Part shown: piece by piece, positions 1-16,631 of the stretch | How the letters are laid out: each line of letters begins with the position of its first letter | How positions within the stretch are numbered: position 1 is the stretch's first letter | IMG/VR virus record: IMGVR_UViG_2740892443_000003 | Coordinates: 1 to 16,874 of that record | Length of the DNA stretch: 16,874 nucleotides | Origin: a virus | Lineage: Duplodnaviria; Heunggongvirae; Uroviricota; Caudoviricetes | Strand: one strand, 5' to 3' | Made by a program: the position numbers and the translations under genes | The notes under the pieces: model-generated | What the model was told of the DNA's origin: nothing | Databases searched by the model: none | Seen by the model: the letters and a program-made list of their open reading frames with translations, nothing else

Positions 1-714
1 ATGTGGGTCAATAAGTATATTGACGATTGCACTGATGAGGATTTAAACGATCGTGACTTTATTGCATCAGTTGTTGACCGGGCTATTTTTCATTTCGCGA
101 TTAATAGTATATGTAATCCTGGGGATAATAAAGATGCGACTCCCATTGAACGATGTACTTTTGATGTAGAAACTAAGAATGGCCTTCCCTCCACGGTTCA
201 GCTATTTTATGAGGAATCTAAGGATAATGAACCTTTAGCGAATATACATTTTCAAGCAATAGGTTCTGGTTTTTTAACGTTTGTTAATGCCTGCCAGGAA
301 CATGATGACAACAGCTTAAAATTATTTGCTTCGCTGTTAATTTCACTTTCATATTCTAGTGCCTACACAGATTTAGCCGGAGCAGAAAAAGTGAATATTA
401 ATGAATATAATGAGAACTATCTGACAGCTCAGTTTGAAGAATTATCTCAACGTGATATGAAGAAGTACCTGGGAGAGATGAAGCATCTGGCGGACCGGGG
501 GGGGATGAAATTTGATGACTATCTGGATAAAATGTCACTTCTGGTGAATGAAGGAAAGCTCGAACCTGATATTTTAAGCAAAATGCGAGATGCTGCACCG
601 AAATTAATTGACTTTGCTAAGTCGTTTGACCCAAACTCAAAGGAAAAGATTAAAATACTTACAGATACTTCTAATTTAATTTATGATTTATTCGGGGTTA
701 AATCGGCGAAATAA
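1..714 (+). CDS. Hypothetical protein, 237 aa, AT-rich; chromosomal flank upstream of dusA; 5' end may lie outside window
   Basis: ATG at window position 1 to TAA at 712-714. No family recognised. Followed by a hairpin terminator. Position and size fit the gene upstream of dusA in K-12 gene order (yjbM, from memory, unverified). Confidence 0.5.
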   Translation: MWVNKYIDDCTDEDLNDRDFIASVVDRAIFHFAINSICNPGDNKDATPIERCTFDVETKNGLPSTVQLFYEESKDNEPLANIHFQAIGSGFLTFVNACQEHDDNSLKLFASLLISLSYSSAYTDLAGAEKVNINEYNENYLTAQFEELSQRDMKKYLGEMKHLADRGGMKFDDYLDKMSLLVNEGKLEPDILSKMRDAAPKLIDFAKSFDPNSKEKIKILTDTSNLIYDLFGVKSAK

Positions 715-753
715 TATGTGAAGTTCTTCGATGGTATGGAAGGCATTACATAA

Positions 754-786
754 AAGAACCTAATACTTATTGGGTTCTTTTTTCTT
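754..786 (+). terminator. Rho-independent terminator after the flank gene
   Basis: Stem AAGAACC (754-760) pairs with GGTTCTT (773-779) around a 12-nt loop, followed by TTTTCTT. Confidence 0.55.
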
Positions 787-1077
787 CTATCAGTGCCATT
801 AGCAGGAAGAGATATCACCGGAGTTTAATGTGTGATTTTTTATTTATCGTCGAACCTGGATTGTTTATCATTGTCCTTAACAAGGCTAACGGCTAATAAG
901 ATTATTTCCATCACTTCGTGAGAGCTTCATGCCTTGATTTGATCTCAATTTTCTTTTGCAATGAGACAGGCGCTTCCTGTTGTTATGGTATAGTACCCCG
1001 CTATTGAGCCTCCTGAACAGTGATGCTGAATAACATAACCCAATGATATATCGATAAAATAATCTCTACATTTGAAA

Positions 1078-1182
1078 ATGCACGGTAATTCTGAAATGCA
1101 AAAAATCAACCAAACCAGCGCAATGCCTGAAAAAACTGACGTTCACTGGAGTGGTCGGTTTAGCGTTGCACCAATGCTCGAT
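1078..1182 (+). repeat. attL-side copy of the dusA 5' segment (chromosomal version)
   Basis: Direct repeat of 15461-15565; about 20 mismatches over 105 nt by manual codon-by-codon alignment. Confidence 0.8.
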
Positions 1183-1200
1183 AGGATGTACCGTTGTTGA
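1078..1200 (+). pseudogene. dusA: Displaced original 5' end of dusA (35 native codons, 5 island-derived codons, then TGA)
   Basis: Translates MHGNSEMQKINQTSAMPEKTDVHWSGRFSVAPMLD-RMYRC*. The first 35 codons are about 81% identical in DNA to the start of the intact dusA at 15461. Similarity ends right after the shared ATGCTCGA at 1174-1181. Confidence 0.85.
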
Positions 1201-1222
1201 AAAACAAGTAGTTATACACTCT

Positions 1223-1243
1223 GTGGGAGCCTATTGGGAACCC
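1223..1243 (+). promoter_or_regulatory. Two direct NTGGGARCC repeats just inside the left junction; candidate integrase or RDF arm-type sites
   Basis: GTGGGAGCC (1223-1231) and TTGGGAACC (1234-1242), 11 bp apart. The same 8-mer TGGGAACC recurs near the right junction at 15408-15415. Confidence 0.35.
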
Positions 1244-1325
1244 GGCGTTTTCATTTCAAGGTGTAATCCATACGCGGCTTAAGAATGAGATATAATGCGA
1301 CTTTTAGTGTTCCGCTTGAGAGGCC

Positions 1326-1862
1326 ATGATGCTTACCCTGGACGAGATAGGTCAATCAGTACGTAACAATATCCAGTTGATTATTGATCATGTCGGCTTA
1401 CCTCTTGCTGTTGGTCCGCTCAGTGATGATGATTACAAGATTCTGTGTGGTGGCTATGGTGAGCTTGAATGGGACTATGCGTTAAGCACCTATGGCAACT
1501 CCAGAGAAAAGTATGAGTTCTGCATAAAACTTGTTCAGCAAGGTCGGGTTCAGGGAATACCATCAGGAGCAGCAATTTGTGTTTATGGGGTTGAAGAAAA
1601 CATCTTTCGTATCCATATGATCGAAAGGTTTTCTAGAGAAGATGAATCTCACCCATTGAAAGGGCGCATGGTTTTACTCACTCTTATGAGTGCTTTTATA
1701 TTTTGTAAAGCTGTTGAATGTAAAGTTGTCCACATTGTAGAGCCAGTACCAGAACTGGTGCAGTATTACGAGTCTTTTGGTTTCCGCATGGAACAGTGCG
1801 GTTATGTGATGTCTGCAGTCATTGATGAGCTGCAGGATATCTTTCTTAAATTTGCTCAGTAG
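1326..1862 (+). CDS. Putative GNAT-fold N-acetyltransferase-like protein, 178 aa (island cargo)
   Basis: ORF with tandem ATGs at 1326 and 1329 and a GAGAGG Shine-Dalgarno. C-terminal region KGRMVLLTLMSAFIFCKAVECKVVHIVEPVPELVQYYESFGFRM resembles the GNAT acetyl-CoA-binding core. Functional call is tentative. Confidence 0.55.
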   Translation: MMLTLDEIGQSVRNNIQLIIDHVGLPLAVGPLSDDDYKILCGGYGELEWDYALSTYGNSREKYEFCIKLVQQGRVQGIPSGAAICVYGVEENIFRIHMIERFSREDESHPLKGRMVLLTLMSAFIFCKAVECKVVHIVEPVPELVQYYESFGFRMEQCGYVMSAVIDELQDIFLKFAQ

Positions 1863-1967
1863 GTATAGACGAGAAGGGTCTACAAATTGTAGGATACCCG
1901 TCCAGATTACCTTAAAGGTACATCTATGGCAGTCGTTTTGTGCTTAAACTACTAAGAAACGATGTCA

Positions 1968-1988
1968 CCAATCGACATGATCGATTGG
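1968..1988 (+). promoter_or_regulatory. Perfect 8-5-8 palindrome CCAATCGA-catga-TCGATTGG upstream of the small ORF; candidate operator
   Basis: Exact inverted repeat read directly from the sequence, 70 bp upstream of the 2059 start codon. Confidence 0.3.
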
Positions 1989-2058
1989 CATAAGTTAGCT
2001 AAACAAGCTAGCTTTAAAGAGAGGGTTAGAGACGCCTTTACTGTCTCGGGAGTTTTCT

Positions 2059-2232
2059 ATGAAAGATCAAAAAGCAACCAAGCCACAGGTTAAGTTCGAC
2101 ACAATGAAAGCATTCGCAGGTATGGGTGCTGCTGTTGAAGTTCTGATGAAGGCTGCTCCTAATGCGTTCACTCACGCTACTGTCTCTGGTAAAGAGCAGC
2201 AGGGTAAGCTTCGTCGTCGCAAAGCAGCATGA
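2059..2232 (+). CDS. Small basic hypothetical protein, 57 aa (below the ORF-track size cutoff)
   Basis: ATG at 2059 preceded by GGGAG, TGA at 2230-2232, strong terminator 20 bp downstream. Translation MKDQKATKPQVKFDTMKAFAGMGAAVEVLMKAAPNAFTHATVSGKEQQGKLRRRKAA. Confidence 0.45.
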   Translation: MKDQKATKPQVKFDTMKAFAGMGAAVEVLMKAAPNAFTHATVSGKEQQGKLRRRKAA

Positions 2233-2250
2233 TCATAGCTGGTGCTTTTT

Positions 2251-2278
2251 GAAAACCCGCCTTTAGGCGGGTTTTTTC
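2251..2278. terminator. Bidirectional rho-independent terminator shared by the small ORF (+) and the leftward operon (-)
   Basis: AAACCCGCC-ttta-GGCGGGTTT hairpin with an A-tract on one side and a T-tract on the other. Confidence 0.8.
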
Positions 2279-2279
2279 T

Positions 2280-2561
2280 TTAGTGATGTTCTTTGCCCTT
2301 CTGTTTGCCTGTTCTGACCTGTTCCCACTCGATACGTCCTTCTTCTCGTCTTTTGTCTATGTATTCCGCAAGATCCTGAATATTGATGCAACGTTTTGCT
2401 TTTTGTGATGTGCCGATGCGATATGTTGGAACGGGCAACTTACAAGCGTTTGCTTTTGCTTCTGCCGTGGCTGGACTCATGCCAAAGTACTTTTGGCTAA
2501 CTGCTGAGAGTTCAATGTTAGGGGTATTGAATTCAGCCATCAGTAAAAACAAGGTGTTCAT
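2280..2561 (-). CDS. PrtN-family (pyocin-activator / AlpA-like) DNA-binding protein, 93 aa
   Basis: MNTLFLLMAEF...KLPVPTYRIGTSQKAKRCINIQDLAEYID matches the PrtN family pattern as I recall it. Start chosen at the ATG at 2559-2561 with GGAG six nt upstream; the ORF-track start at 2588 is a GTG. Confidence 0.65.
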   Translation of the reverse strand: MNTLFLLMAEFNTPNIELSAVSQKYFGMSPATAEAKANACKLPVPTYRIGTSQKAKRCINIQDLAEYIDKRREEGRIEWEQVRTGKQKGKEHH

Positions 2562-2597
2562 AATTTTCTCCATCAAAACCGGCTGCACCCGGGAAAA

Positions 2598-3170
2598 TCA
2601 TAATTCTGTGCTGGTGGCAGGAATTAATTTCTGCCAGATAGCGGAAACATATTTTGCCTGATGACGAGCATCAGCCAGGGCGTTGTGCCGTTCGCCATCG
2701 AAAGGCATGTCCATTTTGGGGTCGAATCCGATGAAACGCCCAAGCGTAACGATCGTGCGTACATCGTGGTCATTCCAGCACGCCCATGGGCAGATTTGTC
2801 CTGCTCGCTCATAAGCCCCACGTAAAATTACGTTGTCGAAGGTGGCTCCGTTACCCCAGACTTTTAAATATTTCGTATTGTCTGCGTGCCGGTTAATGAA
2901 ATGGTTCAGTTCAGAGAGTGCATCGCTGATCGACAAAGTATCATCAATACAGATTGCAGCTCGTGCTTCAGGGCTTTGTTTCAACCACCACAGGATGGTA
3001 TCGCCGTCAGGTGTGGCCCCTTGCTCCATAGCACTTTCCAGGCTGACAACCGTATAGAATTCTTGTCCGATGTCTCCGGTTTCTGGGGTGAAGAACACCG
3101 CGCCAATGGAAACGATTGGTGCATCCTTATTTTTCCCCATCGTCTCAAGGTCGATCATTAAGTTGTTCAT
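2598..3170 (-). CDS. DnaQ-like DEDDh 3'-5' exonuclease, 190 aa
   Basis: N-terminal MIDLETMG (Exo I D-x-E motif) and C-terminal H...D motif. ATG at 3168-3170 with GGAGGT Shine-Dalgarno, overlapping the upstream stop (TGATG). Confidence 0.8.
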   Translation of the reverse strand: MNNLMIDLETMGKNKDAPIVSIGAVFFTPETGDIGQEFYTVVSLESAMEQGATPDGDTILWWLKQSPEARAAICIDDTLSISDALSELNHFINRHADNTKYLKVWGNGATFDNVILRGAYERAGQICPWACWNDHDVRTIVTLGRFIGFDPKMDMPFDGERHNALADARHQAKYVSAIWQKLIPATSTEL

Positions 3171-3919
3171 CACTTCACCTCCTGCGGCGGTTCCGGTAGC
3201 GGCATCCAGTGAGTTGCTTGCTCAATACCATTACCCGGCTTAATCGTTGCATCTCCGCGCCGAAAGGTGCTTCCGGTATAGCGTGCGGAGCATATTAGCG
3301 GTTCAACCAGAGAGCTATCGAAATTCACCGAAATAAGCACGTTCTGGCCCTTTTCAGGCATTCGATCACTACAGCTTATCCAACTATCCGGAGTTCCTGG
3401 AGAGTTGCCACCGGGAATATTTTCCGGAATATTTTGTTGTGCGTTTTGTGGTTGTTCGGATTTACCCTGAAGCATGGCGGCTCGGCAGGCATCACTGCGA
3501 ACTTCAATCCCCGCCTTATCCAACGCAAGCAACAAACCTCGTTCGCTGTCTCCGCAGTCGTCCAGTGTGTCATTGAGCACCGAAAGCGCTTTTTCGAAAT
3601 CTTCATCGTGAATAGCGAGCGGCACAGCCACCGCTGGCTGCGGTAACTGTGGTGCTGTGTAGAGTGGCGTAACACTGATTTCGTATTCGTTAATATCTTC
3701 ATCGCTGATAGATGCATCAAAGCTTAAAAAGCCAGGTCTACCGAGACCACGGGCCTGTGCGTCCTGGATGATGTACGCCACAGCCTCAGCTTCGAGCGAT
3801 GCCAGTGCGATACGCGCCAGCTCTTTGACAACATCACAGTTTTTATTTCCTTCGCAATCATCCATCAAAAGCCAATCGTCATTGATTATTTCTTTAATCT
3901 TATCCCGTGAAAGTTCCAT
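3170..3919 (-). CDS. Phage protein with C-terminal DUF551-like domain, 249 aa
   Basis: C-terminal WISCSDRMPEKGQNVLIS...HWMPLPEPP resembles DUF551. GGGGGTG Shine-Dalgarno before the ATG at 3917-3919. Confidence 0.65.
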   Translation of the reverse strand: MELSRDKIKEIINDDWLLMDDCEGNKNCDVVKELARIALASLEAEAVAYIIQDAQARGLGRPGFLSFDASISDEDINEYEISVTPLYTAPQLPQPAVAVPLAIHDEDFEKALSVLNDTLDDCGDSERGLLLALDKAGIEVRSDACRAAMLQGKSEQPQNAQQNIPENIPGGNSPGTPDSWISCSDRMPEKGQNVLISVNFDSSLVEPLICSARYTGSTFRRGDATIKPGNGIEQATHWMPLPEPPQEVK

Positions 3920-4119
3920 TATTTCACCCCCTTAGCTTTTCGTTCTGCTTCACTAAAATCCCAATCAACACGATGCGATATTTCAATGGCCGCCCTAACT
4001 GAATGTTCAATCATGATGTCGAGCCTTTGAAGTGTCATAGCCATATTTGGATTTCGAGCCAATATTTCTGCGCGAAGAATTTGCCAGTCATTGCATGTTT
4101 CAAGTAATGAATTAGCCAT
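3919..4119 (-). CDS. Small hypothetical protein, 66 aa
   Basis: Internal ATG (4117-4119) of the 85-aa track ORF, chosen to avoid a 65-nt overlap with the upstream gene. Weak Shine-Dalgarno. Confidence 0.35.
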   Translation of the reverse strand: MANSLLETCNDWQILRAEILARNPNMAMTLQRLDIMIEHSVRAAIEISHRVDWDFSEAERKAKGVK

Positions 4120-4621
4120 TATCTTTACCCCGCGTGCCATATGCTGATAAGCACTCTTCAAATCCAGCCTGATCATCCGTTTGACCTAAACTGAAGCCAT
4201 GCTGAAGACCATGACGAAATGCGCTATCCTGTAATTTGTCTGCAGATTCTAGTTTCAACTCCAGTTCAGCAATCCGCTCCTCATACCGAGCGCCAACGGA
4301 AACGGCTTTATGGAAGGCTTCGCACCATTTGGACGATTGCGCCTGCATCTTCTCCAGCTCATCCAGCAGCGCCAAGACGGTAGCCGGATTGGCTGCGGCG
4401 ATGAATTCAGCATTGGCCTGCTGTTCCATTTGGAAATCTTCATCGAAACCGCTTTCTGGATGCGCTCCTTCAATTCTGCAAATAGGAATATATCCAGCAA
4501 CTTCACGATGAATTAGTGCATCATCACCATCAAATCGGCCATCTCCATATTCGAGCGACCACTCGCCACTCGTTGCTTTTTCTGCCGCCTCACGCAGTGC
4601 CTGATAGTTAATTTTGGTCAT
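4112..4621 (-). CDS. Phage early protein, possibly Ead/Ea22-like, 169 aa
   Basis: Intact ORF in operon register. The motif ANAEFIAAANPATVLALLDELE and a coiled-coil-like C-terminus recall Ea22-like prophage proteins (memory only). Confidence 0.55.
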   Translation of the reverse strand: MTKINYQALREAAEKATSGEWSLEYGDGRFDGDDALIHREVAGYIPICRIEGAHPESGFDEDFQMEQQANAEFIAAANPATVLALLDELEKMQAQSSKWCEAFHKAVSVGARYEERIAELELKLESADKLQDSAFRHGLQHGFSLGQTDDQAGFEECLSAYGTRGKDNG

Positions 4622-4622
4622 A

Positions 4623-4922
4623 TCACATCACCCTGAAGCCGTTGCATTTACGTAAAAAATCGCAGATATAGCCCTTCATTTTTTCGTGCCAATCTCGATC
4701 ATTCCCATTGCACCAACCATCAGGTGGAGTCCAGTTTTCTATCAGAGCAGCCATTTTCTTTGCTTTCGCCGGAGTAGCTGTTGCGGTATCGCAGTAATGA
4801 CGAGTGTCAACCAACGTATCCATACCATCGATATCAAGTACGCAAAACCATGTGTGATTCGGCATTTCAACAGATGGTATTTGTTGCCCACGTCGACGTT
4901 TATCAATAAGACATACAGTCAC
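4623..4922 (-). CDS. Hypothetical protein, up to 99 aa; start uncertain (GTG overlapping the upstream stop)
   Basis: ORF in operon register. Size is close to YfdT of CPS-53 (101 aa) but no sequence recognised. Confidence 0.4.
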   Translation of the reverse strand: MTVCLIDKRRRGQQIPSVEMPNHTWFCVLDIDGMDTLVDTRHYCDTATATPAKAKKMAALIENWTPPDGWCNGNDRDWHEKMKGYICDFLRKCNGFRVM

Positions 4923-5497
4923 TGGTTGCCTCCTTTGCGAAGCTGGTCGGCGATATCTTCGAGAACGCCATCAGAGAATGAGCGGTCAAAATCGCCTTCC
5001 GGCGCATTAGCCATAAAATCAGTAGAGGTAAGAATCATCCTGGCAATATCCGCGGCGTTCTTCGCAGTATCATCAATAAAACCAGCTCCCCAGGCAGCCA
5101 TCATTCTGTTCGCCACAAAGTAAGCGCCCTCCTTGCGTGCTTCAGTCTTCACTTCAGCCAGAAAGGCGTCGGTGGCTGGGGTTTCGCTGTGGTGCAGGGC
5201 ATCGTTGATAATCATTGCAGCAACTCCGGCCTGCCCTGCATCCGTGACCGACACATGCTCAAGAGTTACAGCCATTGCATGTTTAAGCCCCGCATTCTCA
5301 GAAGCCAGCTCCGCGCACTTGTCCTCAATGTTATCAATCGTGATTCCAGCAGAACGACACTCCCGCAACGCCGTTTCTAGTTTTGATTCAAGTTCACCGA
5401 ACTTACGGACAAGATATTCAGCGTTTGTTTCATTCACTTTCAGATCTCGTGGTACACATTTCCCGCGAAGAAACCCTTCCATTTCGAAAACATTCAT
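4919..5497 (-). CDS. Hypothetical phage early protein, 192 aa
   Basis: ATG at 5495-5497 overlaps the upstream stop (ATGA coupling). No family recognised. Confidence 0.55.
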   Translation of the reverse strand: MNVFEMEGFLRGKCVPRDLKVNETNAEYLVRKFGELESKLETALRECRSAGITIDNIEDKCAELASENAGLKHAMAVTLEHVSVTDAGQAGVAAMIINDALHHSETPATDAFLAEVKTEARKEGAYFVANRMMAAWGAGFIDDTAKNAADIARMILTSTDFMANAPEGDFDRSFSDGVLEDIADQLRKGGNQ

Positions 5498-6030
5498 GCG
5501 CATTTGCGTAACTCCGATAACTCGTTAAAACGTTCCATAAACATCCCGTAGGCATGGCCCGGTGCCAGTGGAATCACGTTGAACATCTCTGTTGCCGGGA
5601 TGCCTTCCAGTACAGGCCAGAAAGAGCCATCATCAAGCCCGAGATCGCGGCGTTCGGTTGCCAGCATGATGAGATCGGCATATTTCACAGGCGTGCTCAT
5701 AACCGGGGGTAACCCGTATTTCTCACGGATTACGGCGTCTATTTTTTCTTCCATTCGTTTATAGTCAGGAAGAAGGCGTTTCAGTGGTGCGGGGATGTCC
5801 TGGCAATACGCTTCTGTTGCATCATGCATTAACGCTTCAAAAGCAAATTCCTGCGGTACCAGCTGGCTGCAAAGCACCGCATGTTGGGCGACGCTGTAGA
5901 AGTGTGAAAGATGGCCGGCAAAGCGACATATATTTGAAAGGGAAACCGCGATATCGTTAATATCGATGCTGTCTTTATTTATCCTGTCATAATAAAAATG
6001 CTTCCCGGAAAAAGTTTTAATAAATGACAT
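5494..6030 (-). CDS. yfdR: HD-domain phosphohydrolase, YfdR-like, 178 aa
   Basis: H...HD motifs (CRFAGH, SVAQHAV, EALMHDATEAY). ATG at 6028-6030 with GGAGAA Shine-Dalgarno gives 178 aa, the size of CPS-53 YfdR. Sits downstream of YfdP- and YfdQ-sized genes. Confidence 0.75.
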   Translation of the reverse strand: MSFIKTFSGKHFYYDRINKDSIDINDIAVSLSNICRFAGHLSHFYSVAQHAVLCSQLVPQEFAFEALMHDATEAYCQDIPAPLKRLLPDYKRMEEKIDAVIREKYGLPPVMSTPVKYADLIMLATERRDLGLDDGSFWPVLEGIPATEMFNVIPLAPGHAYGMFMERFNELSELRKCA

Positions 6031-6086
6031 TTTGTTCTCCACGTTATATGCGCTGCACCGCGCTGAATTTTGGTTAAAGAAAACCC

Positions 6087-6146
6087 TCGCCTTCAGGCGA
6101 TTATTGAGTCAATTACGTTTCCATAAATGCCCCCGCAGGGGCATTT
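6087..6146 (-). other. Two GC-rich hairpins in the yfdQ-yfdR spacer; possible attenuator or RNA-stability element
   Basis: TCGCC-ttca-GGCGA (6087-6100), followed on the minus strand by GGGTTTTCTTT; and the perfect AAATGCCCC-cgca-GGGGCATTT (6125-6146). Confidence 0.35.
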
Positions 6147-6158
6147 GCGGTAATGAAA

Positions 6159-6983
6159 TCAGGCGGTGAAAGTCCCAATAAAGGTTTCTACTTTGCTGTC
6201 CTTGAATTTCTCAACAAGCAGATCACGAAATTCGTTAGCCATATCTTCCTGCACCGCTTCCAGCTGAATAATGCGTAGAACCAGTACCGGACGATCGCCA
6301 GTGATAATGCTGAGGCGTAATTTAAACGGACGTTCTTTCAGACCTTCAAACGGAACGCATTTAAACTCAAATGCCACTGGCATAATGTCTTTGGTCTTCG
6401 CTTCGACAGACTCCATCAGGGAGCGTTTGCCGCTGAAGTCATTATCTTCAAAATCAGCAGTCTGGTTTGCTTCAATTGTGATTTTACGGACTGCCGCAGC
6501 CGCTTTGGTTGCCTGAATGGTGTCACCATTAGCATCAAAGCCCACAAGGTAGTCGGCCCAGTCTTCAATCCATTCTGCCAGTGACTTCTGGGAGTTACGC
6601 TCGCCGTTAACAGACAACAGGGCAGAGAACGGTGCTGTCTTTTTCAGTTTGAGAGTGGCGGTGTTATCTGCGTGACCTGGTTCATCAATAGTACCCAGGT
6701 TAAGCACACTGACTGCTCGCATATTATCGGCATCGATAAAGCAGCGGGTGCCTTCATCTGCAAGATCTTTAGAATAACGGGTAAAGTCATCGATGCTGGC
6801 AGTGGAAAGCGCACCACGGAAACGGAAGCGATTTAAATTAAATTTTTCCAGATCATGAATGCGGAAATTCTCAGGCAATGCCACAGCATCGGCACCAATC
6901 TTACTGATAATTTCATTAACACCCTGAGCAGAAATAAGGGCATGGATTTGATTAATTGCGGTTGCGTCTAAGTTCTGAGACAT
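6159..6983 (-). CDS. yfdQ: YfdQ-like (DUF2303-type) prophage protein, 274 aa
   Basis: Exact size of CPS-53 YfdQ and the same position in a yfdP-yfdQ-yfdR order. GTGAGGA Shine-Dalgarno. Sequence identity itself not checked. Confidence 0.7.
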
Positions 6984-7048
6984 AATAAGTCCTCACTATA
7001 TAAAGATATTCAGTGATGAGATAAATAATCGGTTAATTAAGAACGATA

Positions 7049-7411
7049 TTAATGACCTGCTGCGCGGAGTTTTCCGTCAGGTTCACCGGCAAGAGTCAGT
7101 AATTGTCCCTGGTCTTCCTGCAGAATAGTCAGGCGACCACCGCGATTGACATACATCGGCGTTTCGGTGGTGTCTTCTTCGGAAATTTTCCCGCGGTTAG
7201 TCGGGCGAACATATGAGAGTTTGTGTTTGATTTTCACACGGTTCTCATCAAATGGTTCGATTTCCAGGTTGAGTGAGACCTTACCTTTGGTTTTCGTGTT
7301 CATCACACCTGAAGCGACTTCACTGAGAACTGCGCCGATTTTGGTTTCAAATACGCCGCCGTCCAACTCCCCGATAAATGCCTGCACATCAGTACTGCGT
7401 TCGCTAGCCAT
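7049..7411 (-). CDS. yfdP: YfdP-like prophage protein, 120 aa
   Basis: Start placed at the internal ATG (7409-7411), which has a GAGGAG Shine-Dalgarno 7 nt upstream. The 182-aa track ORF extends upstream through a structured noncoding region. Confidence 0.6.
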   Translation of the reverse strand: MASERSTDVQAFIGELDGGVFETKIGAVLSEVASGVMNTKTKGKVSLNLEIEPFDENRVKIKHKLSYVRPTNRGKISEEDTTETPMYVNRGGRLTILQEDQGQLLTLAGEPDGKLRAAGH

Positions 7412-7460
7412 TTTGCTGCTCCTCATCATATCGACCCTGCAAGGTCGGTTGGTTTCTCCA

Positions 7461-7547
7461 CAAAACAGAGAAGAACACCTGCGGTGGCAGCCGCCCGGAT
7501 GGATTGGGTTATGAGCCCGTCGTCCGGTGATGCTCTTCTCTGTTTTG
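7461..7547 (-). repeat. Long inverted repeat in the early-operon leader: 14-bp perfect arms, 59-bp spacer
   Basis: CAAAACAGAGAAGA (7461-7474) is the exact reverse complement of TCTTCTCTGTTTTG (7534-7547). Lies 50-135 bp upstream of the yfdP start. Confidence 0.5.
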
Positions 7548-7594
7548 TAAAAAGAGCGGTACCAGCCGGAAGCAAGTGTACAAACTGGTACCGC
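7548..7594 (-). terminator. Candidate intrinsic terminator or OL-like operator in the leftward leader
   Basis: GCGGTACCAG (7556-7565) and CTGGTACCGC (7585-7594) are exact inverted repeats; on the minus strand they are followed by TCTTTTTA. The arms contain the GGTACC core seen in the cI/cro operators. Confidence 0.4.
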
Positions 7595-8026
7595 CAAAGC
7601 AGTGGCTGTTGTGGTGACCGGTGCTGATCTCCGGCTTGCGGTTATTTCAGACTCTCACTGGCGTTTAATTGCCCCGCCGAACAGCTCTTTTCCGCAATAG
7701 CTGCAATGTCTTTCGCGCATCAGCCTGCGCATTCACCACAACGCTGAGAGCACTTAGCCAGTTACGGCACCACACTTTGTCGCGGTTCCATAAATGCCCT
7801 CATCGTTGCACCCTGGTCTCTTCCCAGGTGTCAAACCGAACCGCCACGCTGGTTAGGCGTCTTATCAGCATCATCATTGACTTGCACATTCCGGCTACCT
7901 GGTTTGTTTGCCCGAGCAAGGAGTGGATTGTCCCCTTTAACGTCCCCAGACCGCTAACGACGCATGTGCCATACGCCGTGTTACAACCAAATTTTGTTTA
8001 ATCTTGCCTGTGACATGTTTCTTTTA

Positions 8027-8059
8027 GATACATTATGTATCTCAAGGGTACATTGTCAA
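8027..8059 (-). promoter_or_regulatory. PL-like leftward promoter with overlapping operator palindrome
   Basis: Minus-strand -35 TTGACA (plus 8054-8059), 16-bp spacer, -10 CATAAT (plus 8032-8037). The perfect palindrome GATACA-tta-TGTATC (8027-8041) overlaps the -10, and GGTACATT lies at the -35. Confidence 0.5.
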
Positions 8060-8061
8060 GT

Positions 8062-8086
8062 ATAAAAAAACCTGCCGAAGCAGGTT
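8062..8086 (-). terminator. Rho-independent terminator of the cI-like gene
   Basis: AACCTGC-cgaa-GCAGGTT hairpin followed on the minus strand by seven T residues, 12 bp after the cI stop. Confidence 0.75.
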
Positions 8087-8097
8087 ATAAATATTGA

Positions 8098-8772
8098 TTA
8101 GGCCTTTATTTTGTATCTTCTTGGTTTTCCTGAGAAAATTACTGTACCAATTATAGAGCAATTACCGTTGATCTTAATGTAAGGTTCAGGCCAGTTTGGG
8201 TTTAATGCTTTGAGGTAACGCTGTGTTCCATCTTCTATCAACCGCTTAAAGGTGGTTTCGCCTGTATCGTGCATCAATGCAATAACGTCGTCACCGTGGC
8301 AGGCAGGGACTTCAGGATCTACAAAAATCATGTCTCCCGGGCGGTACTCATCAATCATTGAATCACCAATCACCCGCAAGATATAAGTCATTTCGCCACA
8401 GGGTACAGGGCAGGGATAAGTTTCTGCTGTGCTCAAATCAACCTCAGAATAGCCAACTTCTTTCCATGCTCCGGCCTGTACCCATGATATGACAGGGACT
8501 AACGTTATTTGTTTGTTAGTGATTGAAACGTCAGGTTTTTTTGTGATGTTCGTTGTCTGGTGTTCTTGATCAAGCCATCCGACAGGCAGGTCGAAACATT
8601 TTTCGATGTGCCGTGCCATGCTGTCACCGATATTTTTAGTTGCACCATCTCCCATAAACCTGCTGGTCTGGGTTGGCTCGCGATCAATCATGGTGGCAAA
8701 GGAAGAATTCCCGCCAACACCATCTCTCAGTTTTCTGGCGTTAGACCGCCGGATGTCATGGACTGTTTTCAT
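8098..8772 (-). CDS. Lambda-cI/LexA-type autocleavable repressor (S24 peptidase C-terminal domain), 224 aa
   Basis: VQAG cleavage-site motif, GDSM serine nucleophile, TFKRL lysine. C-terminus aligns by eye to lambda cI ([22 protein letters not shown] versus TFKRLIEDGTQRYLKALNPNWP). N-terminal HTH region. Confidence 0.9.
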   Translation of the reverse strand: MKTVHDIRRSNARKLRDGVGGNSSFATMIDREPTQTSRFMGDGATKNIGDSMARHIEKCFDLPVGWLDQEHQTTNITKKPDVSITNKQITLVPVISWVQAGAWKEVGYSEVDLSTAETYPCPVPCGEMTYILRVIGDSMIDEYRPGDMIFVDPEVPACHGDDVIALMHDTGETTFKRLIEDGTQRYLKALNPNWPEPYIKINGNCSIIGTVIFSGKPRRYKIKA

Positions 8773-8788
8773 AAAGAAATTAAAACCT

Positions 8789-8807
8789 TTGTACCGATAA
8801 GGTACAA
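8789..8807. promoter_or_regulatory. Operator palindrome TTGTACC-gataa-GGTACAA in the cI/cro intergenic region
   Basis: Perfect 7-5-7 inverted repeat lying over the predicted -35 regions of the divergent promoters. Confidence 0.6.
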
Positions 8808-8812
8808 GTATC

Positions 8813-8840
8813 TTGAAGGTTCATCTCAATCATGTAATAT
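8813..8840 (+). promoter_or_regulatory. PR-like promoter for the cro/baseplate operon
   Basis: -35 TTGAAG (8813-8818), 16-bp spacer, -10 TAATAT (8835-8840). Confidence 0.45.
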
Positions 8841-8859
8841 GTATACCGGAGGTACATAT
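8837..8859. promoter_or_regulatory. Second operator-like palindrome ATATGTA-N9-TACATAT overlapping the PR -10 and transcription start
   Basis: Exact inverted half-sites at 8837-8843 and 8853-8859. Shares the TGTA / GGTACA core with the 8789 and 8027 sites. Confidence 0.45.
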
Positions 8860-8862
8860 TGT

Positions 8863-9231
8863 ATGAAAGCGTATTGGGACTCTTTAACCAAAGAACAGCA
8901 GGGTGAGTTGGCCGGAAAAGTTGGCTCAACACCAGGCTACTTACGGCTGGTTTTCAATGGTTATAAAAAAGCCAGTTTTGTGCTGGCTAAAAAACTTGAG
9001 CAATGCACGTCAGGTGCAATTACGAAATCTGACTTAAGACCGGATATCAACACGCGCCTTGAACAGTCTGCACGGATCATTCAGCGCACGCCGGATGAGG
9101 TTTTACCCGCGCTGGTGCTGGCGGCGACCTGGTTTGATAACGCGGCGCGTGACGCGGACATTATCCGGCGTAATGCCATTACGCATCCCGGCTTTGTGCC
9201 GGTGATCCCTCTGAAGGTGCCAGTGCAATGA
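8863..9231 (+). CDS. Cro/YdaS-like HTH regulator with a C-terminal extension, 122 aa
   Basis: GGAGG Shine-Dalgarno then ATG at 8863. GSTPGYLRLVFNG...SGAITKSDLRPDI fits the YdaS/Cro HTH pattern. The last ~45 codons are GC-rich like the structural genes. The stop overlaps the next start (ATGA at 9228-9231). Confidence 0.6.
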   Translation: MKAYWDSLTKEQQGELAGKVGSTPGYLRLVFNGYKKASFVLAKKLEQCTSGAITKSDLRPDINTRLEQSARIIQRTPDEVLPALVLAATWFDNAARDADIIRRNAITHPGFVPVIPLKVPVQ

Positions 9232-10307
9232 ACGACAATGTCACGCTACGGGTAAATGGCCGGGAGTGGAATGGCTGGACATCGGTGCGCATCGGTGCCG
9301 GTATTGAACGGCTGGCGCGGGATTTCAGTGTGGAGATCACTCGCCAATGGCCGGGAGATGAGGGTATCACCACGCTTCAGCCGCGCATTAAAAACGGTTC
9401 AAAAGTGGAAGTGCTAATTGGTGATGAGCTGGTGATCACCGGCTGGGTGGAGGCGACTCCCGTTCGTTACGATGCCCGTTCGGTCAGCACCGGTATTGCC
9501 GGACGTAGTCTGACGGCTGACCTGATTGACTGTGCAGCCGAACCGACACAGTTTAACGGACGCTCGCTGGTGCAGATTGCGCAGGCGCTTGCTGCACCTT
9601 TCGGCATTGAGGTGGTGAACAGCGGTGCGCCGTCGGGTGTTATTCCTGATGTTCAGCCTGATCACGGTGAAACGGTGATTGAGGTAATCAACAAAATACT
9701 CGGTCAGCAGCAGGCGCTGGCTTACGACGACCCGCACGGCAGGCTGGTGATTGGCGGTATTGGCTCAACGCGGGCACATACCGCGCTGGTACTTGGGGAA
9801 AACATCCTTTCCTGCGATACGGAGAAGAGTATCCGGGAGCGGTTTTCTGTTTACCAGGTGGCGGGGCAGCGTGCCGGAAACGACGATGATTTCGGTGAGG
9901 CCACCACAACTGCGCTGCGGGCCCGCACAGAGGACGCATTTATTGCCCGTTACCGTCCGATGTATATCAGGCAGACAGGGCAGGCCACGGGGGCAGGCTG
10001 TATTGCGCGTGCTGACTTTGAAGCCCGACAACGGGCGGCGCGGACGGATGAAACCACTTATGTGGTGCAGGGCTGGCGACAGGGTAACGGTACGCTGTGG
10101 CAGCCCAACCAGCGGGTGATTGTCTTCGATCCGGTCTGTGGTTTCGACAATACCGAACTGCTTGTTTCGGAAGTCACGTTTACTCAGGACCAGAACGGCA
10201 CCCTGACGGAAATCCGTGTCGGCCCGCCTGATGCTTATCTGCCTGAACCCGAAGATCCCGGCGCGCGGAAAAAGAAAAAAGCCAGAGTACAGGAGGACCC
10301 GTTCTGA
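9228..10307 (+). CDS. Baseplate hub protein (Mu gp44 / P2 gpD-like), 359 aa
   Basis: Size and position immediately upstream of a gpV-like gene in conserved Mu/P2 baseplate order; family membership not confirmed by motif. High GC. Translationally coupled on both sides. Confidence 0.6.
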   Translation: MNDNVTLRVNGREWNGWTSVRIGAGIERLARDFSVEITRQWPGDEGITTLQPRIKNGSKVEVLIGDELVITGWVEATPVRYDARSVSTGIAGRSLTADLIDCAAEPTQFNGRSLVQIAQALAAPFGIEVVNSGAPSGVIPDVQPDHGETVIEVINKILGQQQALAYDDPHGRLVIGGIGSTRAHTALVLGENILSCDTEKSIRERFSVYQVAGQRAGNDDDFGEATTTALRARTEDAFIARYRPMYIRQTGQATGAGCIARADFEARQRAARTDETTYVVQGWRQGNGTLWQPNQRVIVFDPVCGFDNTELLVSEVTFTQDQNGTLTEIRVGPPDAYLPEPEDPGARKKKKARVQEDPF

Positions 10308-10855
10308 TGAGGGCGATTGAAGCCATGCAGCGACAACTCCTCGGCCTGATTGGGCGGGCCGTGGTGAAAAGCATCAGTGCCGCCACGAAATGTCAGACCG
10401 TGGATGTGTCCCTGATTGCCGGTGAACCCAAAGCCGGGGTTGAACATCTTGAACCCTACGGTTTTACCGCAAGGGCAAACAGCGGTGCGGAAGCGGTGGT
10501 GTTGTTTCCGGATGGCGACCGTTCTCATGCGGTGGTTGTTACGGTGTCGGACCGGCGCTACCGCCTGAAAGGGCTGCAGACGGGTGAGGTGGCTGTCTAT
10601 GACGATCAGGGGCAGTCCGTGACGCTGACCCGGGAGGGGATCGTGGTGGACGGTGCAGGTAAAACGATCACGTTTCGCAATTCACCTAAAGCACGTTTTG
10701 AAATGGACCTGGAAGTGACAGGACAGGTGAAAGACCTGTGCGACTCCAGCGGCACTACCATGTCAGCGATGCGGCTTGCCTATAACGGGCATCGTCACAG
10801 AGAGAACGGTCAGGGCAGTAACACCGACAAACCGGATAAAGCGATGGAGGCATGA
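10307..10855 (+). CDS. Baseplate spike / assembly protein V-like (Mu gp45), 182 aa
   Basis: gpV-like features including a C-terminal YNGHRH motif comparable to LHTHKH in P2 gpV. AGGAGG Shine-Dalgarno. TGATG overlap with the upstream stop. Confidence 0.7.
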   Translation: MRAIEAMQRQLLGLIGRAVVKSISAATKCQTVDVSLIAGEPKAGVEHLEPYGFTARANSGAEAVVLFPDGDRSHAVVVTVSDRRYRLKGLQTGEVAVYDDQGQSVTLTREGIVVDGAGKTITFRNSPKARFEMDLEVTGQVKDLCDSSGTTMSAMRLAYNGHRHRENGQGSNTDKPDKAMEA

Positions 10856-11280
10856 TGGAACTGTGGCTGACGGTGAACGGTAAACGCACCTGCGCCAGCG
10901 CACCGCTGGATCCGCTGACCCGCGCCGTGGTGATTTCCCTGTTTACCTGGCGGCGGGCGGAGCCTGATGACAACGCCGACGTCCCGATGGGATGGTGGGG
11001 GGATACCTGGCCTGCGGTACAGAATGACCGTTACGGCTCCCGACTGTGGCTGCTTCAGCGCAGCAAACTGACCAATCAGCTGGTGCAGACAGTAAGGGGG
11101 TATATCCGCGAATGCCTGCAATGGATGATTGATGACGGTGTGGTGTCCCGTATTGATCTGGATATCCGCCGCACCGGGATTAATGAGCTGGGTAACAGTA
11201 TCACCCTCTGGCGTCGTGACGGACCGGTAATGATTTCTTTTGATGATCTGTGGAGTGCGATAACGCATGGCGGACAGTGA
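10852..11280 (+). CDS. GP46/gpW-type baseplate wedge protein (T4 gp25-like), 142 aa
   Basis: Size and position in conserved order. GGAGG Shine-Dalgarno. Overlaps neighbours on both sides. Confidence 0.65.
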   Translation: MMELWLTVNGKRTCASAPLDPLTRAVVISLFTWRRAEPDDNADVPMGWWGDTWPAVQNDRYGSRLWLLQRSKLTNQLVQTVRGYIRECLQWMIDDGVVSRIDLDIRRTGINELGNSITLWRRDGPVMISFDDLWSAITHGGQ

Positions 11281-12325
11281 ATTTCAGCGCCCGACGCTGG
11301 CAGAAAATATCAGTATGCTCCGTAACGATTTATTCGCCAGGCTGGACGTCAGCGACACGCTCCGGCGCATGGATGAAGACGTGCGGGCAAAGGTGTATGC
11401 GGCGGCGCTGCATACGGTTTACGGTTACATCGATTATCTGGCAATGAACATGCTGCCTGATCTGTGCGATGAGTCCTGGCTGGCGCGACATGCTGCGATG
11501 AAACGGTGTCCGCGCAAGGGGGCCACGGCTGCCAGCGGGTATATGCGCTGGGAAGGTGTCAGCGATGGCCTGAAGGTGACCGCCGGGAGTGTTATTCAGC
11601 GCGATGACCTGGTTCAGTACACGGCAACTGCCGATGCAACCAGCACTGGTGGTGTCCTGCGTGTGCCGATCACTTGCTCAACTACAGGCGCGGTCGGTAA
11701 CGCTGACGACGGTACGGCATTAATCCTGGTCACACCGGTGAATGGTCTGCCGTCTTCCGGTGTGGCTGACACCCTGACAGGCGGATTTGATACTGAAGAG
11801 CTGGAAACGTGGCGCGCCCGCGTCATTGAGCGGTATTACTGGACGCCTCAGGGCGGGGCTGACGGGGACTATGTCGTCTGGGCTAAAGAAGTGCCCGGCA
11901 TTACCCGCGCATGGACATACCGACACTGGATGGGAACGGGGACTGTCGGTGTGATGATTGCCAGCAGTGACCTGATTAATCCCATTCCGGAAGAGTCAAC
12001 GGAAACGGCGGCAAGACAACATATCGAGCCACTGGCCCCGGTGGCAGGCTCTGATTTGTATGTATTCAGGCCGGTGGCGCATAAAGTGGATTTTCATATC
12101 CGCGTGACGCCGGACACACCGGAAATACGGGCTGCCATCACCGCCGAGTTGCGTTCGTTCCTGCTGCGTGATGGTTATCCGCAGGGAGAACTGAAGGTGT
12201 CACGTATCAGTGAAGCGATTTCCGGTGCGAACGGGGAATACAGCCATCAGTTGCTTGCCCCGGCGGACAATATCTCCATTGCAAAAAATGAGCTGGCGGT
12301 TCTGGGGACGATTTCATGGACGTGA
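11267..12325 (+). CDS. Baseplate J-like protein (Mu gp47 / P2 gpJ), 352 aa
   Basis: Typical size and position. Overlaps neighbours by 14 and 10 nt. Confidence 0.75.
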
Positions 12326-12900
12326 CAAACGATGATTATATCCGTCTGTTGTCGGCACTGTTGCCGCCCGGTCCGGCGTGGTCAGTCAGCGATCCGGCGA
12401 TTGCCGGTGCGGCACCGTCATTAACCCGCGTTCATCAGCGTGCGGATGCCCTGATGCGGGAGCTGGATCCGCGCACCACCACTGAACTGATAAACCGCTG
12501 GGAGCGTCTGTGCGGTCTGCCGGATGAATGTATTCCCGCAGGGACACAGACCCTTCGCCAGCGTCAGCAACGGCTGGATGCGAAGGTTAATCTGGCGGGC
12601 GGCATCAATGAGGATTTTTATCTTGCACAGCTTGCTGCCCTGGGCAGACCAGACGCCACTATCACGCGATACGATAAAAGCACGTTCACCTGCTCATCGG
12701 CCTGTACTGACGCGGTGAATGCGCCGGAATGGCGGTATTACTGGCAGGTCAACATGCCAGCCGCCACCAACACCACCTGGATGACATGTGGCGATCCCTG
12801 TGATTCCGCACTGCGTATCTGGGGCGACACCGTTGTCGAGTGTGTGCTTAACAAACTCTGCCCGTCGCATACCTACGTAATTTTTAAATATCCGGAGTAA
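12316..12900 (+). CDS. Mu gp48 / P2 gpI-like tail protein (YmfQ-like, DUF2313-type), 194 aa
   Basis: Same length as e14 YmfQ (from memory). Sits between the J-like gene and the tail fibre. Confidence 0.7.
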
Positions 12901-12903
12901 TCC

Positions 12904-13551
12904 ATGCATCGTATAGACACGAAAACCGCGCAGAAGGATAAGTTCGGCGCGGGTAAGAACGGTTTTACCCGTGGTAATCCCCAGACTGGTACGCCTGCCA
13001 CCGATCTGGATGATGACTACTTTGACATGTTGCAGGAGGAGCTTTGCAGCGTTGTGGAGGCATCCGGTGCCAGCCTGGAGAAGGGGCGGTATGACCAGTT
13101 GCTTACCGCACTTCGCGCACTGCTGTTAAGCCGCAATAATCCGTTTGGTGATATCAAATCGGACGGCACGGTACCAACGGCTCTCAAAAACCTTGGTTTA
13201 GGAGAAGCGGCGAAAAGGGATGTGGGCACAGGAGATAATCAGATACCGGATATGGGAGCATTCGCTTCTGGTTCGGGATGGTTCAGGCTACCAGGTGGAT
13301 ATATTGTTCAGTTTGGCACTTTTTCAGGAAACACGACCCGCTTTATCAGTGGACACTTCCCTATACCATTCCCTAATCAGCCGATGGTTTCAGTCAGTGT
13401 TATGTCTGATGCCGTTCAGTCAGACCCGTCGAATCCTGCCCCGCAGGTTTTGTCTGTAAATTTTGAACATATCAGTAATTCAGCGTGGCGTGTGGCAACC
13501 AGTGATATCTCACAGCAATACAGATTCAGTTATATTTCGATAGGACGGTAG
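12904..13551 (+). CDS. Short tail fibre protein, 215 aa (conserved N-terminal domain plus variable C-terminal part)
   Basis: [47 protein letters not shown] is the conserved phage tail-fibre N-terminus. GGAG Shine-Dalgarno. Confidence 0.75.
13181..13206. other. Gin/Pin/Hin-type (Din family) 26-bp crossover-site-like sequence inside the tail-fibre gene
   Basis: CTCTCAAAAACC-TT-GGTTTAGGAGAA is an imperfect palindrome with the AAACC-NN-GGTTT core. It matches hixL (TTCTTGAAAACCAAGGTTTTTGATAA, from memory) at 9 of 12 positions in each half. Confidence 0.5.
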
Positions 13552-13553
13552 AA

Positions 13554-13994
13554 ATGCAGAAATATATTTTCAGTGCCGATAAAAATGCGTTTTTCCCTGT
13601 GGAGCTTAAAATCGCTTATCAGGAATCCGGCGAATGGCCCGATGATGGAATCGAAATTGACGACACTGTTGCCGCCGAATTTATGAAGGAAGCACCAGAA
13701 GGAAAATACAGAGGTGTCATCGACGGAATGCCAGCATGGATTGATATTCCACCGCCAACTCATGAGGAACAAATTGCCGCAGCCGAACTGGAAAAGCAGC
13801 AATTGATTAATCAGGTCAACGAATACATAAACAGTAAGCAATGGCCTGGTAAAGCGGCGATTGGTCGCCTGAAAGGTGAGAAACTGGCGCAATATAATTT
13901 GTGGCTGGATTATCTGGACGCACTGGAGCTGGTCGATACTTCCGGTGCGCCAGATATTGAATGGCCTACGCCTCCGGCAGTTCAGGCCAGATGA
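13554..13994 (+). CDS. Tail fibre assembly chaperone (Tfa, Mu U / lambda Tfa-like), 146 aa
   Basis: MQKYIFSADKNAFFP... with a C-terminal ...PDIEWPTPP motif typical of Tfa proteins. Confidence 0.8.
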   Translation: MQKYIFSADKNAFFPVELKIAYQESGEWPDDGIEIDDTVAAEFMKEAPEGKYRGVIDGMPAWIDIPPPTHEEQIAAAELEKQQLINQVNEYINSKQWPGKAAIGRLKGEKLAQYNLWLDYLDALELVDTSGAPDIEWPTPPAVQAR

Positions 13995-15372: not shown

Positions 15373-15392
15373 TACACGACCTCGTTATTTCG

Positions 15393-15427
15393 GGTTCCCA
15401 TAAAACGTGGGAACCTGTGCGGGAACC
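15393..15427. promoter_or_regulatory. Palindrome GGTTCCCA-N7-TGGGAACC plus a third GGGAACC copy between int and dusA; candidate operator or arm-type site
   Basis: Exact 8-bp inverted arms at 15393-15400 and 15408-15415, with GGGAACC again at 15421-15427. Lies 20-55 bp upstream of the int start and 35-70 bp upstream of dusA. Confidence 0.4.
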
Positions 15428-15460
15428 TAACGCGAGAAAAATAGCCTGAAATGTTCAAAA

Positions 15461-15565
15461 ATGCACGATAATCATGAAACACAAAAAATTAATCAAACCA
15501 GCGTGATGCCTGAAAAAACTGGTGTTTACTGGAATTCTCGGTTTAGCATTGCTCCTATGCTCGAC
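15461..15565 (+). repeat. attR-side copy of the dusA 5' segment (island-supplied replacement)
   Basis: About 81% identical to 1078-1182; continuous with the rest of dusA. Confidence 0.8.
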
Positions 15566-16498: not shown

Positions 16499-16527
16499 CT
16501 TTTCACCAAAAAGTAGTCAAATTCACC

Positions 16528-16557
16528 ACGCCCTGCGCACCGTCGCGGGGCGTTTTG
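16528..16557 (+). terminator. Hairpin terminator after dusA
   Basis: ACGCCCTGCG-caccgt-CGCGGGGCGT followed by TTTGCTGTT. Confidence 0.5.
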
Positions 16558-16580
16558 CTGTTAAATCAATAGATTATTTT

Positions 16581-16596
16581 TGGCATGATTCTTGTA
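16581..16596 (+). promoter_or_regulatory. sigma54-type promoter of pspG
   Basis: TGGCAT-N5-TTGT fits the -24 GG / -12 spacing. pspG is a known sigma54/PspF-dependent gene. Confidence 0.5.
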
Positions 16597-16631
16597 ATGC
16601 CAGCAAGAGATTTCATATTTGGGAGAGCATC

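Follow-up and report, generated by a model that had tools for sequence, protein, structure and literature searches.

A two-gene temperate-phage cassette encoding a GNAT-fold protein and a 57-residue basic protein, with features of a toxin-antitoxin-like module

Are the two plus-strand genes that lie between the left attachment site (attL) and the early-left operon of a prophage remnant at dusA unrelated passengers, or do they belong together? The question is posed by a 16,874-nt stretch of viral DNA (IMG/VR record IMGVR_UViG_2740892443_000003, positions 1 to 16,874; hereafter the window), in which an open reading frame (ORF) scan confirms two cargo genes that run opposite to the operon and converge with its excisionase and exonuclease genes. 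An earlier reading made from the letters alone (the sequence-only reading) had noticed this arrangement and had judged the genes unrelated to phage core functions, which agrees with their being accessory genes of a dusA-integrating prophage. That reading treated them as two separate pieces of cargo. Comparison across genomes instead indicates that the two genes are one co-inherited cassette, and that positions 1329-2277 are a self-contained two-gene accessory cassette ('moron') of temperate phages. The finding, a widespread two-gene phage cassette, is more coherent than had been proposed. Its parts are as follows.

1291-1296, plus strand: perfect -10 hexamer TATAAT with a weak -35, candidate promoter of the GNAT gene, invariant in diverged Salmonella-type copies.
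1329-1862, plus strand: GNAT-fold protein, 177 aa, isoelectric point (pI) 4.8 (mEp460 gp23, WP_000956557.1, PHROG 4350).
1866-1895, plus strand: promoter-like pair for the small gene, at or just past the GNAT stop codon (-35 TAGACG 1866-1871, 18-nt spacer, -10 TAGGAT 1890-1895).
1907-2047, plus strand: structured leader RNA with hairpins B (1907-1921), C (1968-1988), D (1992-2014) and E (2029-2047).
2059-2232, plus strand: small basic protein, 57 aa, pI 10.5, C-terminus ...QGKLRRRKAA (mEp460 gp24, WP_000654815.1, PHROG 2741).
2251-2276, either strand: intrinsic terminator for the cassette (plus) and the converging early-left operon (minus), with an 11-bp perfect stem and a T-run.

The linkage of the two genes is strict. 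A small-protein homologue follows next downstream, on the same strand, in all 105 loci that carry a GNAT homologue. Approached from the other side, the Salmonella, Enterobacter, Hafnia and metagenomic copies reached via the small protein have a 177-179-aa gene without a Pfam match in front; in one contig the preceding gene encodes 204 aa. The two proteins also diverge together, and over 153 pairs, which reach down to 40% identity for the GNAT protein and 32% for the small one, their pairwise identities correlate with r=0.93. Among 5426 complete E. coli genomes, the GNAT gene was found in 358 (including O157:H7), the whole pair in 356, and the small gene together with xis in 562. That is to say, the small gene occurs without the GNAT gene in ~200 E. 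coli genomes, and the reverse was never seen in the 105 loci examined. Adjacent, co-oriented small genes that are paired on mobile elements, with a putative toxin that never occurs without its partner, are the pattern of type II toxin-antitoxin systems. In one Photorhabdus temperata locus (L023, 6100-6400) the GNAT gene is fragmented and the downstream small gene is intact.

Carriers comprise 6-7% of complete E. coli genomes (O157:H7 and O111 among them), many Salmonella, and phages of Photorhabdus, Edwardsiella, Hafnia and Shewanella. We rejected the possibility that these are conserved housekeeping genes at dusA, as every copy examined resides in a prophage or phage contig.

Across phage backgrounds, homology begins at the GNAT start (~1327) and ends at the terminator (2277), and what lies outside these limits differs widely. 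In the dusA prophages of E. coli and Salmonella the cassette sits at the edge next to attL, and in Enterobacter, Franconibacter, Hafnia and others it follows antiterminator Q and precedes the lysis genes. Photorhabdus copies are embedded in tail/baseplate clusters, another context is near smpB, and in Shewanella the position is a prophage edge. In Edwardsiella the cassette lies between gpA and the portal gene of a prophage related to P2; this site is the P2 gpA-gpQ defence hotspot, the home of old and tin (PMC9122126). At least six insertion contexts, promoter-like elements, a terminator and exchange of cargo together give the unit the properties of a phage accessory cassette. It has also stayed intact here, even though the prophage around it is a remnant, probably locked in place, whose integrase is truncated.

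Cargo exchange is seen in the E. coli genomes that carry the small gene and no GNAT gene, as in phages Lys8385Vzw and SKA5. Here, window positions 1243-2045 are replaced by genes for a Panacea-domain protein (PF13274, E=2e-19) and a 139-aa partner, an architecture known from toxin-antitoxin systems (PMC8832971). The right junction of the swap falls 13 nt ahead of the small-gene ATG, and the small gene is retained. In other variants the small gene is followed by an additional gene, for a CoiA-like nuclease or an HTH-2TM protein. Viewed as a location, the interval from attL to xis in lambdoid phages that integrate at dusA is a hotspot of cargo swapping, and the 57-aa gene is kept in the variants examined (L024-L027 and L193; the swap-variant loci are L024 2986-4187, L026 2483-3684, L027 2480-4854 and L193 4381-4848). 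A separate observation concerns Hafnia-type phages (L199 1650-2609, L200 1551-2609), where a RelA_SpoT (toxSAS/CapRel-like) gene stands immediately upstream of the cassette, between Q and holin.

What kind of proteins does the cassette encode? Both carry prior entries as hypothetical proteins in RefSeq and as families of unknown function in PHROGs, and mEp460 gp23 and gp24 are likewise located between int/attP and xis. The larger protein had been described as 178 aa with a GNAT-like C-terminal core. Its conserved start is the second ATG, at 1329 rather than 1326, since homologues begin MLTL, and the spacing of GAGAGG at 1318-1323 suits this ATG better; the length is therefore 177 aa. The GNAT fold itself is borne out by structure prediction, and it spans the entire protein as a mixed alpha/beta structure with a central beta-sheet and helices alpha1-alpha4, placing the protein among GNATs at the level of the fold. 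At the level of sequence no such membership was found, as Pfam, NCBIfam and PADLOC models gave no match at E<=1, and a search of PDB sequences with the family profile returned only spurious armadillo-repeat matches. Motif alignment by eye did not reveal the canonical acetyl-CoA pyrophosphate loop (Q/R-x-x-G-x-G/A), the loop after beta4 reading H-P-L-K-G-R-M.

Foldseek neighbours of the GNAT-fold protein are scattered across the whole superfamily. The top matches include NatD/Naa40, RimI and GCN5 (~10-13% identity) and the spermidine acetyltransferase SpeG; the tRNA-acetylating toxins TacT3 and AtaT are among many equally good ones, and similarity to solved GNAT toxins is at the fold level only (8-15% identity). 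A BFVD search returned generic viral GNATs only, at a template modelling (TM) score of ~0.5. Residues invariant among homologues include H97, E100, H109-P110-L111, G113, M115, Y148 and G152-F153; of these, E100 on beta4 and Y148 on alpha4 occupy what we take to be positions typical of GNAT catalytic residues. The family is small: of 1.84 billion cluster representatives, 97 match at E<=0.001. Homologues with a named source are all from Enterobacterales except for one from Shewanella. The GNAT gene is under purifying selection, with a ratio of nonsynonymous to synonymous substitution rates (dN/dS) of 0.04-0.27, and its product is acidic (pI 4.4-5.5) in all lineages checked.

The 57-aa protein had been picked out as lysine/arginine-rich and absent from the ORF track. 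The gene was in fact already in RefSeq and in the mEp460 annotation, and purifying selection (dN/dS 0.05-0.31) indicates that it is a genuine selected gene. The Shine-Dalgarno proposed for it is present as GGGAG at 2048-2052, 6 nt ahead of the ATG at 2059. The protein is basic in every lineage checked (pI 9.7-10.8) and is conserved in E. coli, Salmonella, Hafnia, Photorhabdus, Edwardsiella and Shewanella. Common features are an FDT motif (LS in Edwardsiella and Shewanella), a helix end ...KAAP..F (QATP in Edwardsiella) and a tail of the form E-x-x-G-K/R-...-A-A. M1, K5 and Q48-G49-K50 are invariant in close homologues; across divergent lineages M1, K2 and G49 are invariant, and position 50 is K or R. 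An AlphaFold model of low overall confidence (predicted local distance difference test, pLDDT, 61) contains only short helices spanning residues 15-37 and tails without secondary structure, so that the protein is predicted to be mostly disordered. Its C-terminus, ...LRRRKAA, resembles the ClpX-recognised degrons of MuA (...RRKKAI) and ssrA (...LAA) (PMC12723719), a likeness that we treat as a lead.

Family searches gave little for the small protein: together with four divergent homologues it matched no Pfam family at E<=0.1 or E<=1, PADLOC (E<=1) and NCBIfam contained no match, a PDB search with its profile returned designed repeat proteins only, and no DNA-binding fold is evident. The structure and profile searches that the sequence-only reading had suggested for both proteins have thus yielded a GNAT fold for the larger and no Pfam or NCBIfam match for either. 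Codon usage of the small gene is, by eye, suggestive of high expression. Its synonymous divergence (dS) is far lower than the GNAT gene shows when the same cassettes are compared pairwise (0.08-0.7 versus at least 1.4 or saturated); biased codon use, a recent recombination event at the end nearest xis or constraint at the RNA level could each account for this. An overlapping 43-aa ORF at 1962-2093 was considered as coding and rejected, as gap lengths there are not multiples of three in our own reading of the locus alignment (A5); Pfam, NCBIfam and PADLOC gave no match for it.

Expression of the two genes could be independent of the host promoter. The sequence-only reading had suggested transcription from the orphaned dusA promoter, and read-through from it is possible because no terminator was found between 1200 and 1329. 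It would not be required, given the conserved TATAAT at 1291-1296 and the promoter-like pair for the small gene; a stricter consensus promoter scan did not call the TATAAT. For the pair, alignment A5 shows hexamers TAGACG and TAGGAT to be invariant and the spacer between them variable. When 17 lineage representatives were scanned, most had an equivalent pair at or overlapping the GNAT stop codon, for example TAGACA-16-TAGCAT in Photorhabdus, TAGATA-16-TGnTAGAAT in Edwardsiella and TTGATA-16-TATAAT in Shewanella; in four loci (L103, L016, L004 and L013) no such pair was among the top-scoring ones. Because the pair is conserved at this position, we infer an internal promoter for the small gene. 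The gap between the two genes is 196 nt here and 77-196 nt across loci.

Within this gap lies the perfect 21-bp palindrome that had been reported at 1968-1988. Inspection of the site instead reveals hairpin C, with 8-bp arms CCAATCGA (1968-1975) and TCGATTGG (1981-1988) around a 5-nt non-palindromic spacer, as one of the four hairpins of a structured leader whose last, hairpin E, abuts the Shine-Dalgarno GGGAG. Among 29 distinct leader sequences, pairing is maintained in 89.3% of cells, as compared to 19-42% when the partners are slid, and 41 cells carry double changes, a number that none of 500 shuffles reached (16.3+/-2.9). Compensatory changes are seen in seven pairs, a count indistinct from chance in the shuffle control. 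The plus-strand spacer folds with a z-score of -3.64, and many U-G/G-U pairs are compatible with a plus-strand RNA only. Such pairs occur at three stem positions of 1968-1988, and because they would be A-C mismatches on the other strand, or in a palindrome bound by a protein, a DNA operator was rejected as the main explanation of the site.

Rfam contains no family for the spacer, its only hits being sub-threshold terminator look-alikes at 2181-2284 and a chance snoRNA match inside the GNAT gene. A covariance model of the leader (R1) detects it in Enterobacteriaceae-type cassettes only and not in Photorhabdus, Edwardsiella, Shewanella or Hafnia spacers, which makes the four-hairpin leader lineage-specific rather than common to all cassettes. 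In the remaining lineages, judged by eye, all that is kept is a hairpin just before the Shine-Dalgarno. The leader RNA is a new cis-regulatory candidate. At the downstream end, the strong terminator that had been noted is present as described, and it should be usable in both directions because an A-run occupies the opposite side of the stem.

Taken together, we tentatively favour, at somewhat less than an even chance, the reading that the cassette acts in a toxin-antitoxin-like or abortive-infection manner and that its small protein is a partner of a new kind. The acidic GNAT-fold protein would be an acyl-CoA-dependent acyltransferase harmful to the cell or to an infecting phage. Overproduced from a promoter and structured leader of its own, the small basic protein would bind and neutralise the enzyme, probably by placing its Lys/Arg-rich tail with the invariant Q-G-K in the acceptor site. 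It would be short-lived by virtue of its ClpX-degron-like C-terminus, such that the enzyme would be freed once synthesis of the small protein stops, whether because a phage shuts off the host or because the element is lost.

Several observations lead us to favour the toxin-antitoxin-like reading. The linkage is strict and asymmetric, since the small gene occurs without the GNAT gene and never the reverse, with L023 as a further instance. The unit moves into accessory and defence slots and is replaced there by a bona fide toxin-antitoxin family. The charges of the two proteins are complementary, the small partner is predicted to be disordered, degron-like and separately and probably highly expressed, the cassette has been retained in a locked prophage remnant, and the GNAT fold has TacT3 and AtaT among its neighbours. 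The sequence-only reading had raised a toxin, immunity or defence role, pointing to tRNA-acetylating GNAT toxins; the general idea gains contextual support from the Panacea slot, the P2 hotspot and the toxSAS-like neighbour, and membership in the known tRNA-acetylating family falls away.

Other observations weigh against a toxin-antitoxin-like module. Neither protein is matched by PADLOC, Pfam or NCBIfam, and the partner has neither DUF1778 nor DUF4065 and no evident DNA-binding fold. The enzyme-first order and the 77-196-nt gap are unusual for type II pairs, and a strongly acidic enzyme is unexpected for a tRNA-binding toxin. The GNAT fold is uninformative on the target because its structural neighbours spread over the whole superfamily. 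Finally, the small gene may have a function of its own, because ~200 E. coli genomes keep it behind a complete Panacea pair. It is doubtful, though possible, that the cassette represents an unrecognised phage-borne toxin-antitoxin or defence family in which a divergent acidic GNAT acyltransferase is checked by, or acts through, a degron-tagged 57-residue protein with no DNA-binding domain, its own promoter and a four-hairpin leader.

The main rival is an enzyme-substrate pair, a reading that we consider unlikely but worth weighing closely. Here, the small basic protein would be the effector, a peptide that binds nucleic acid, the ribosome or a host factor, and the GNAT would acetylate its N-terminus or the lysines of its G-K motifs, switching its activity or stability. 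The small protein could also work unmodified, which would explain why its gene survives, alone and intact, in ~200 E. coli genomes; the GNAT gene never occurs alone. Other features that such a pair would account for are the invariant residues M1, K5 and Q48-G49-K50 in close homologues and M1, K2 and G49 across divergent lineages, the conserved opposite charges, the promoter-like pair and codon usage that by eye looks highly expressed, and the N-terminal acetyltransferases of basic tails that are the best fold matches. Placement in toxin-antitoxin and defence slots is left unexplained, no fold or family match hints at a role for the small protein, and to our knowledge there is no precedent for such a phage pair.

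Two further readings are less likely than either of these. It is improbable that the GNAT is a detoxifying enzyme of lysogenic conversion, acetylating either an external small molecule (such as a polyamine, an aminoglycoside or an antibiotic of the aminoacyl-nucleotide type) or a signalling molecule of phage or defence origin, with the small protein as an accessory or regulator. Morons expressed from prophages often change the host phenotype, and the top Foldseek matches include GNATs that act on small molecules, SpeG among them; such an enzyme leaves its strict linkage to a small basic protein over 105 loci unexplained and finds no match to a resistance-GNAT family in Pfam or NCBIfam (E<=1). 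Equally hard to sustain is the notion of two independent accessory genes that travel as mere neighbours, for although 77-196 nt and a distinct promoter-like element separate them and the small gene also follows other cargo, the Panacea pair, hitch-hiking is unlikely to outlast a reshuffling through at least six genomic contexts in which order and adjacency are kept, with divergence to 32-41% identity and co-divergence at r=0.93.

The setting of the cassette is a dusA prophage remnant whose closest relative is the lambdoid phage mEp460 (99% identity over 1201-2300). Features of the window outside the cassette are listed here.

1-714: yjbM of E. coli (DUF2713), at the window start and followed by the 5' end of dusA.
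1078-1200, plus strand: orphaned host dusA 5' stub of 40 codons (ATG 1078, stop 1198-1200), from alignment of attL, attR and the phage attP and from translation of the restored 5' end.
1231-1245, no strand assigned: CCTATTGGGAACCCG, adjoining attL, invariant between E. coli-type and Salmonella-type elements with variable flanks.
2280-2588, minus strand: PrtN-family excisionase (PF11112, E=4e-23; excisionase in the mEp460 annotation), last gene of the early-left operon and part of the phage backbone outside the cassette.
2598-3173, minus strand: 3'-5' exonuclease of the early-left operon.

The 40-codon dusA stub ending at 1200 is as the sequence-only reading had described it. It has the native N-terminus MHGNSEMQKINQTSAMPEKTDVHWSGRFSVAPMLD and diverges thereafter; alignment of the left junction, the right junction and a related free phage attP sets the limit of host DNA at the attL crossover end, ~1189 (...CCAATGCTCGA), and the final stub codons with the stop are phage-derived. 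RefSeq labels the stub a partial tRNA-dihydrouridine synthase. An intact dusA at 15461-16498 is restored by a phage-borne dusA 5' end at attR, and this replacement of the 5' end is the same behaviour as that of the published dusA-specific integrase family (PMC4482086). The GGGAAC motif of CCTATTGGGAACCCG recurs near int in the phage attP, and 1231-1245 is possibly an integrase arm-type binding site.

The integrase ORF (13966-15372, minus strand) matches mEp460 Int residues 1-329 of 365 at 98% identity. Past residue 329 it runs in frame into inverted tail-fibre-assembly (Caudo_TAP) sequence, with loss of the C-terminal 36 residues, among which the catalytic tyrosine presumably lay; because of this loss, the remnant is probably locked in dusA. 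The remnant as a whole is ~14 kb and chimeric, with a lambdoid early-left region and cI-type repressor (8098-8772) joined directly to Mu-like baseplate genes. The latter (9228-12900, gp44-48 homologues) are followed by tail fibre and assembly genes (to 13994), and the remnant contains no replication, lysis, head or terminase genes. The small RNA sRNA-17, an ArcA-modulated transcript of E. coli K1 RS218 (PMC7719688), maps to window positions ~7548-7740 on the plus strand, with its 5' sequence AAAAGAGCGGTACCAGCCGGAAGCAAG exact at 7556-7576, between a yfdP-like ORF and the cI-type repressor and away from the cassette. As a small RNA of an mEp460 prophage it had been suspected in the 196-nt spacer, and on this mapping it was rejected as unrelated.

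If the toxin-antitoxin-like reading is true, a common unannotated pair of prophages in E. coli (O157:H7, O111), Salmonella and other Enterobacterales would be a new type of toxin-antitoxin or defence system, adding a GNAT effector with an unusual small partner to the catalogue of phage-carried immunity. It could also explain how the pair stays intact in decayed, immobilised prophages, and the att-proximal slot of dusA-integrating lambdoid phages would be a cargo-swap hotspot comparable to those of P2 and P4. Should the cassette prove an ordinary acetyltransferase moron, its value would be limited to better annotation of PHROG 4350 and PHROG 2741.

How does the cassette compare with known systems? 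Known GNAT toxins are partnered by DUF1778 (ribbon-helix-helix, RHH) or DUF4065 antitoxins (PMC9177977). The cassette resembles TacAT, AtaRT, ItaRT, KacAT and the DUF4065-GNAT pairs in combining a ~175-aa GNAT-fold enzyme with a small protein in a two-gene mobile module, where the active site could be filled by a basic tail of the partner, which also has disordered regions. In contrast to these systems, its enzyme lacks sequence similarity to the toxins and to Pfam acetyltransferase models, is acidic (pI 4.4-5.5) and is encoded first, ahead of a long structured spacer, and its partner lacks DUF1778 and DUF4065. The sequence-only reading had already called this gene order atypical for GNAT toxin pairs. 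No match to solved GNAT toxins places the enzyme within the tRNA-acetylating TacAT/AtaRT-type clade, and by sequence, antitoxin domain, gene order and enzyme acidity the cassette is not a member of the known GNAT/DUF1778 or GNAT/DUF4065 families.

The Panacea (PanA/PanT) systems share a location with the cassette, namely the very slot that falls, in window coordinates, between 1242 and 2046 and that they fill in sister dusA-integrating phages, and they too are swappable two-gene cargo. Their proteins are unrelated to those of the cassette, and in the Panacea variant the antitoxin comes first and the 57-aa gene third, with only its ribosome-binding site retained. NatD/Naa40, RimI and GCN5 are alike in being the best overall fold matches of an enzyme that has a basic, disordered, potential acceptor encoded next door, the likeness reaching only ~10-13% identity. 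The hotspots of temperate phages (P2 old/tin, lambdoid Q-lysis and att-proximal dusA cargo) differ in being a concept of location without a mechanism, and the cassette is absent from PADLOC 2.0; it is nevertheless at these very positions that the cassette is found, with its internal promoter-like pair and terminator.

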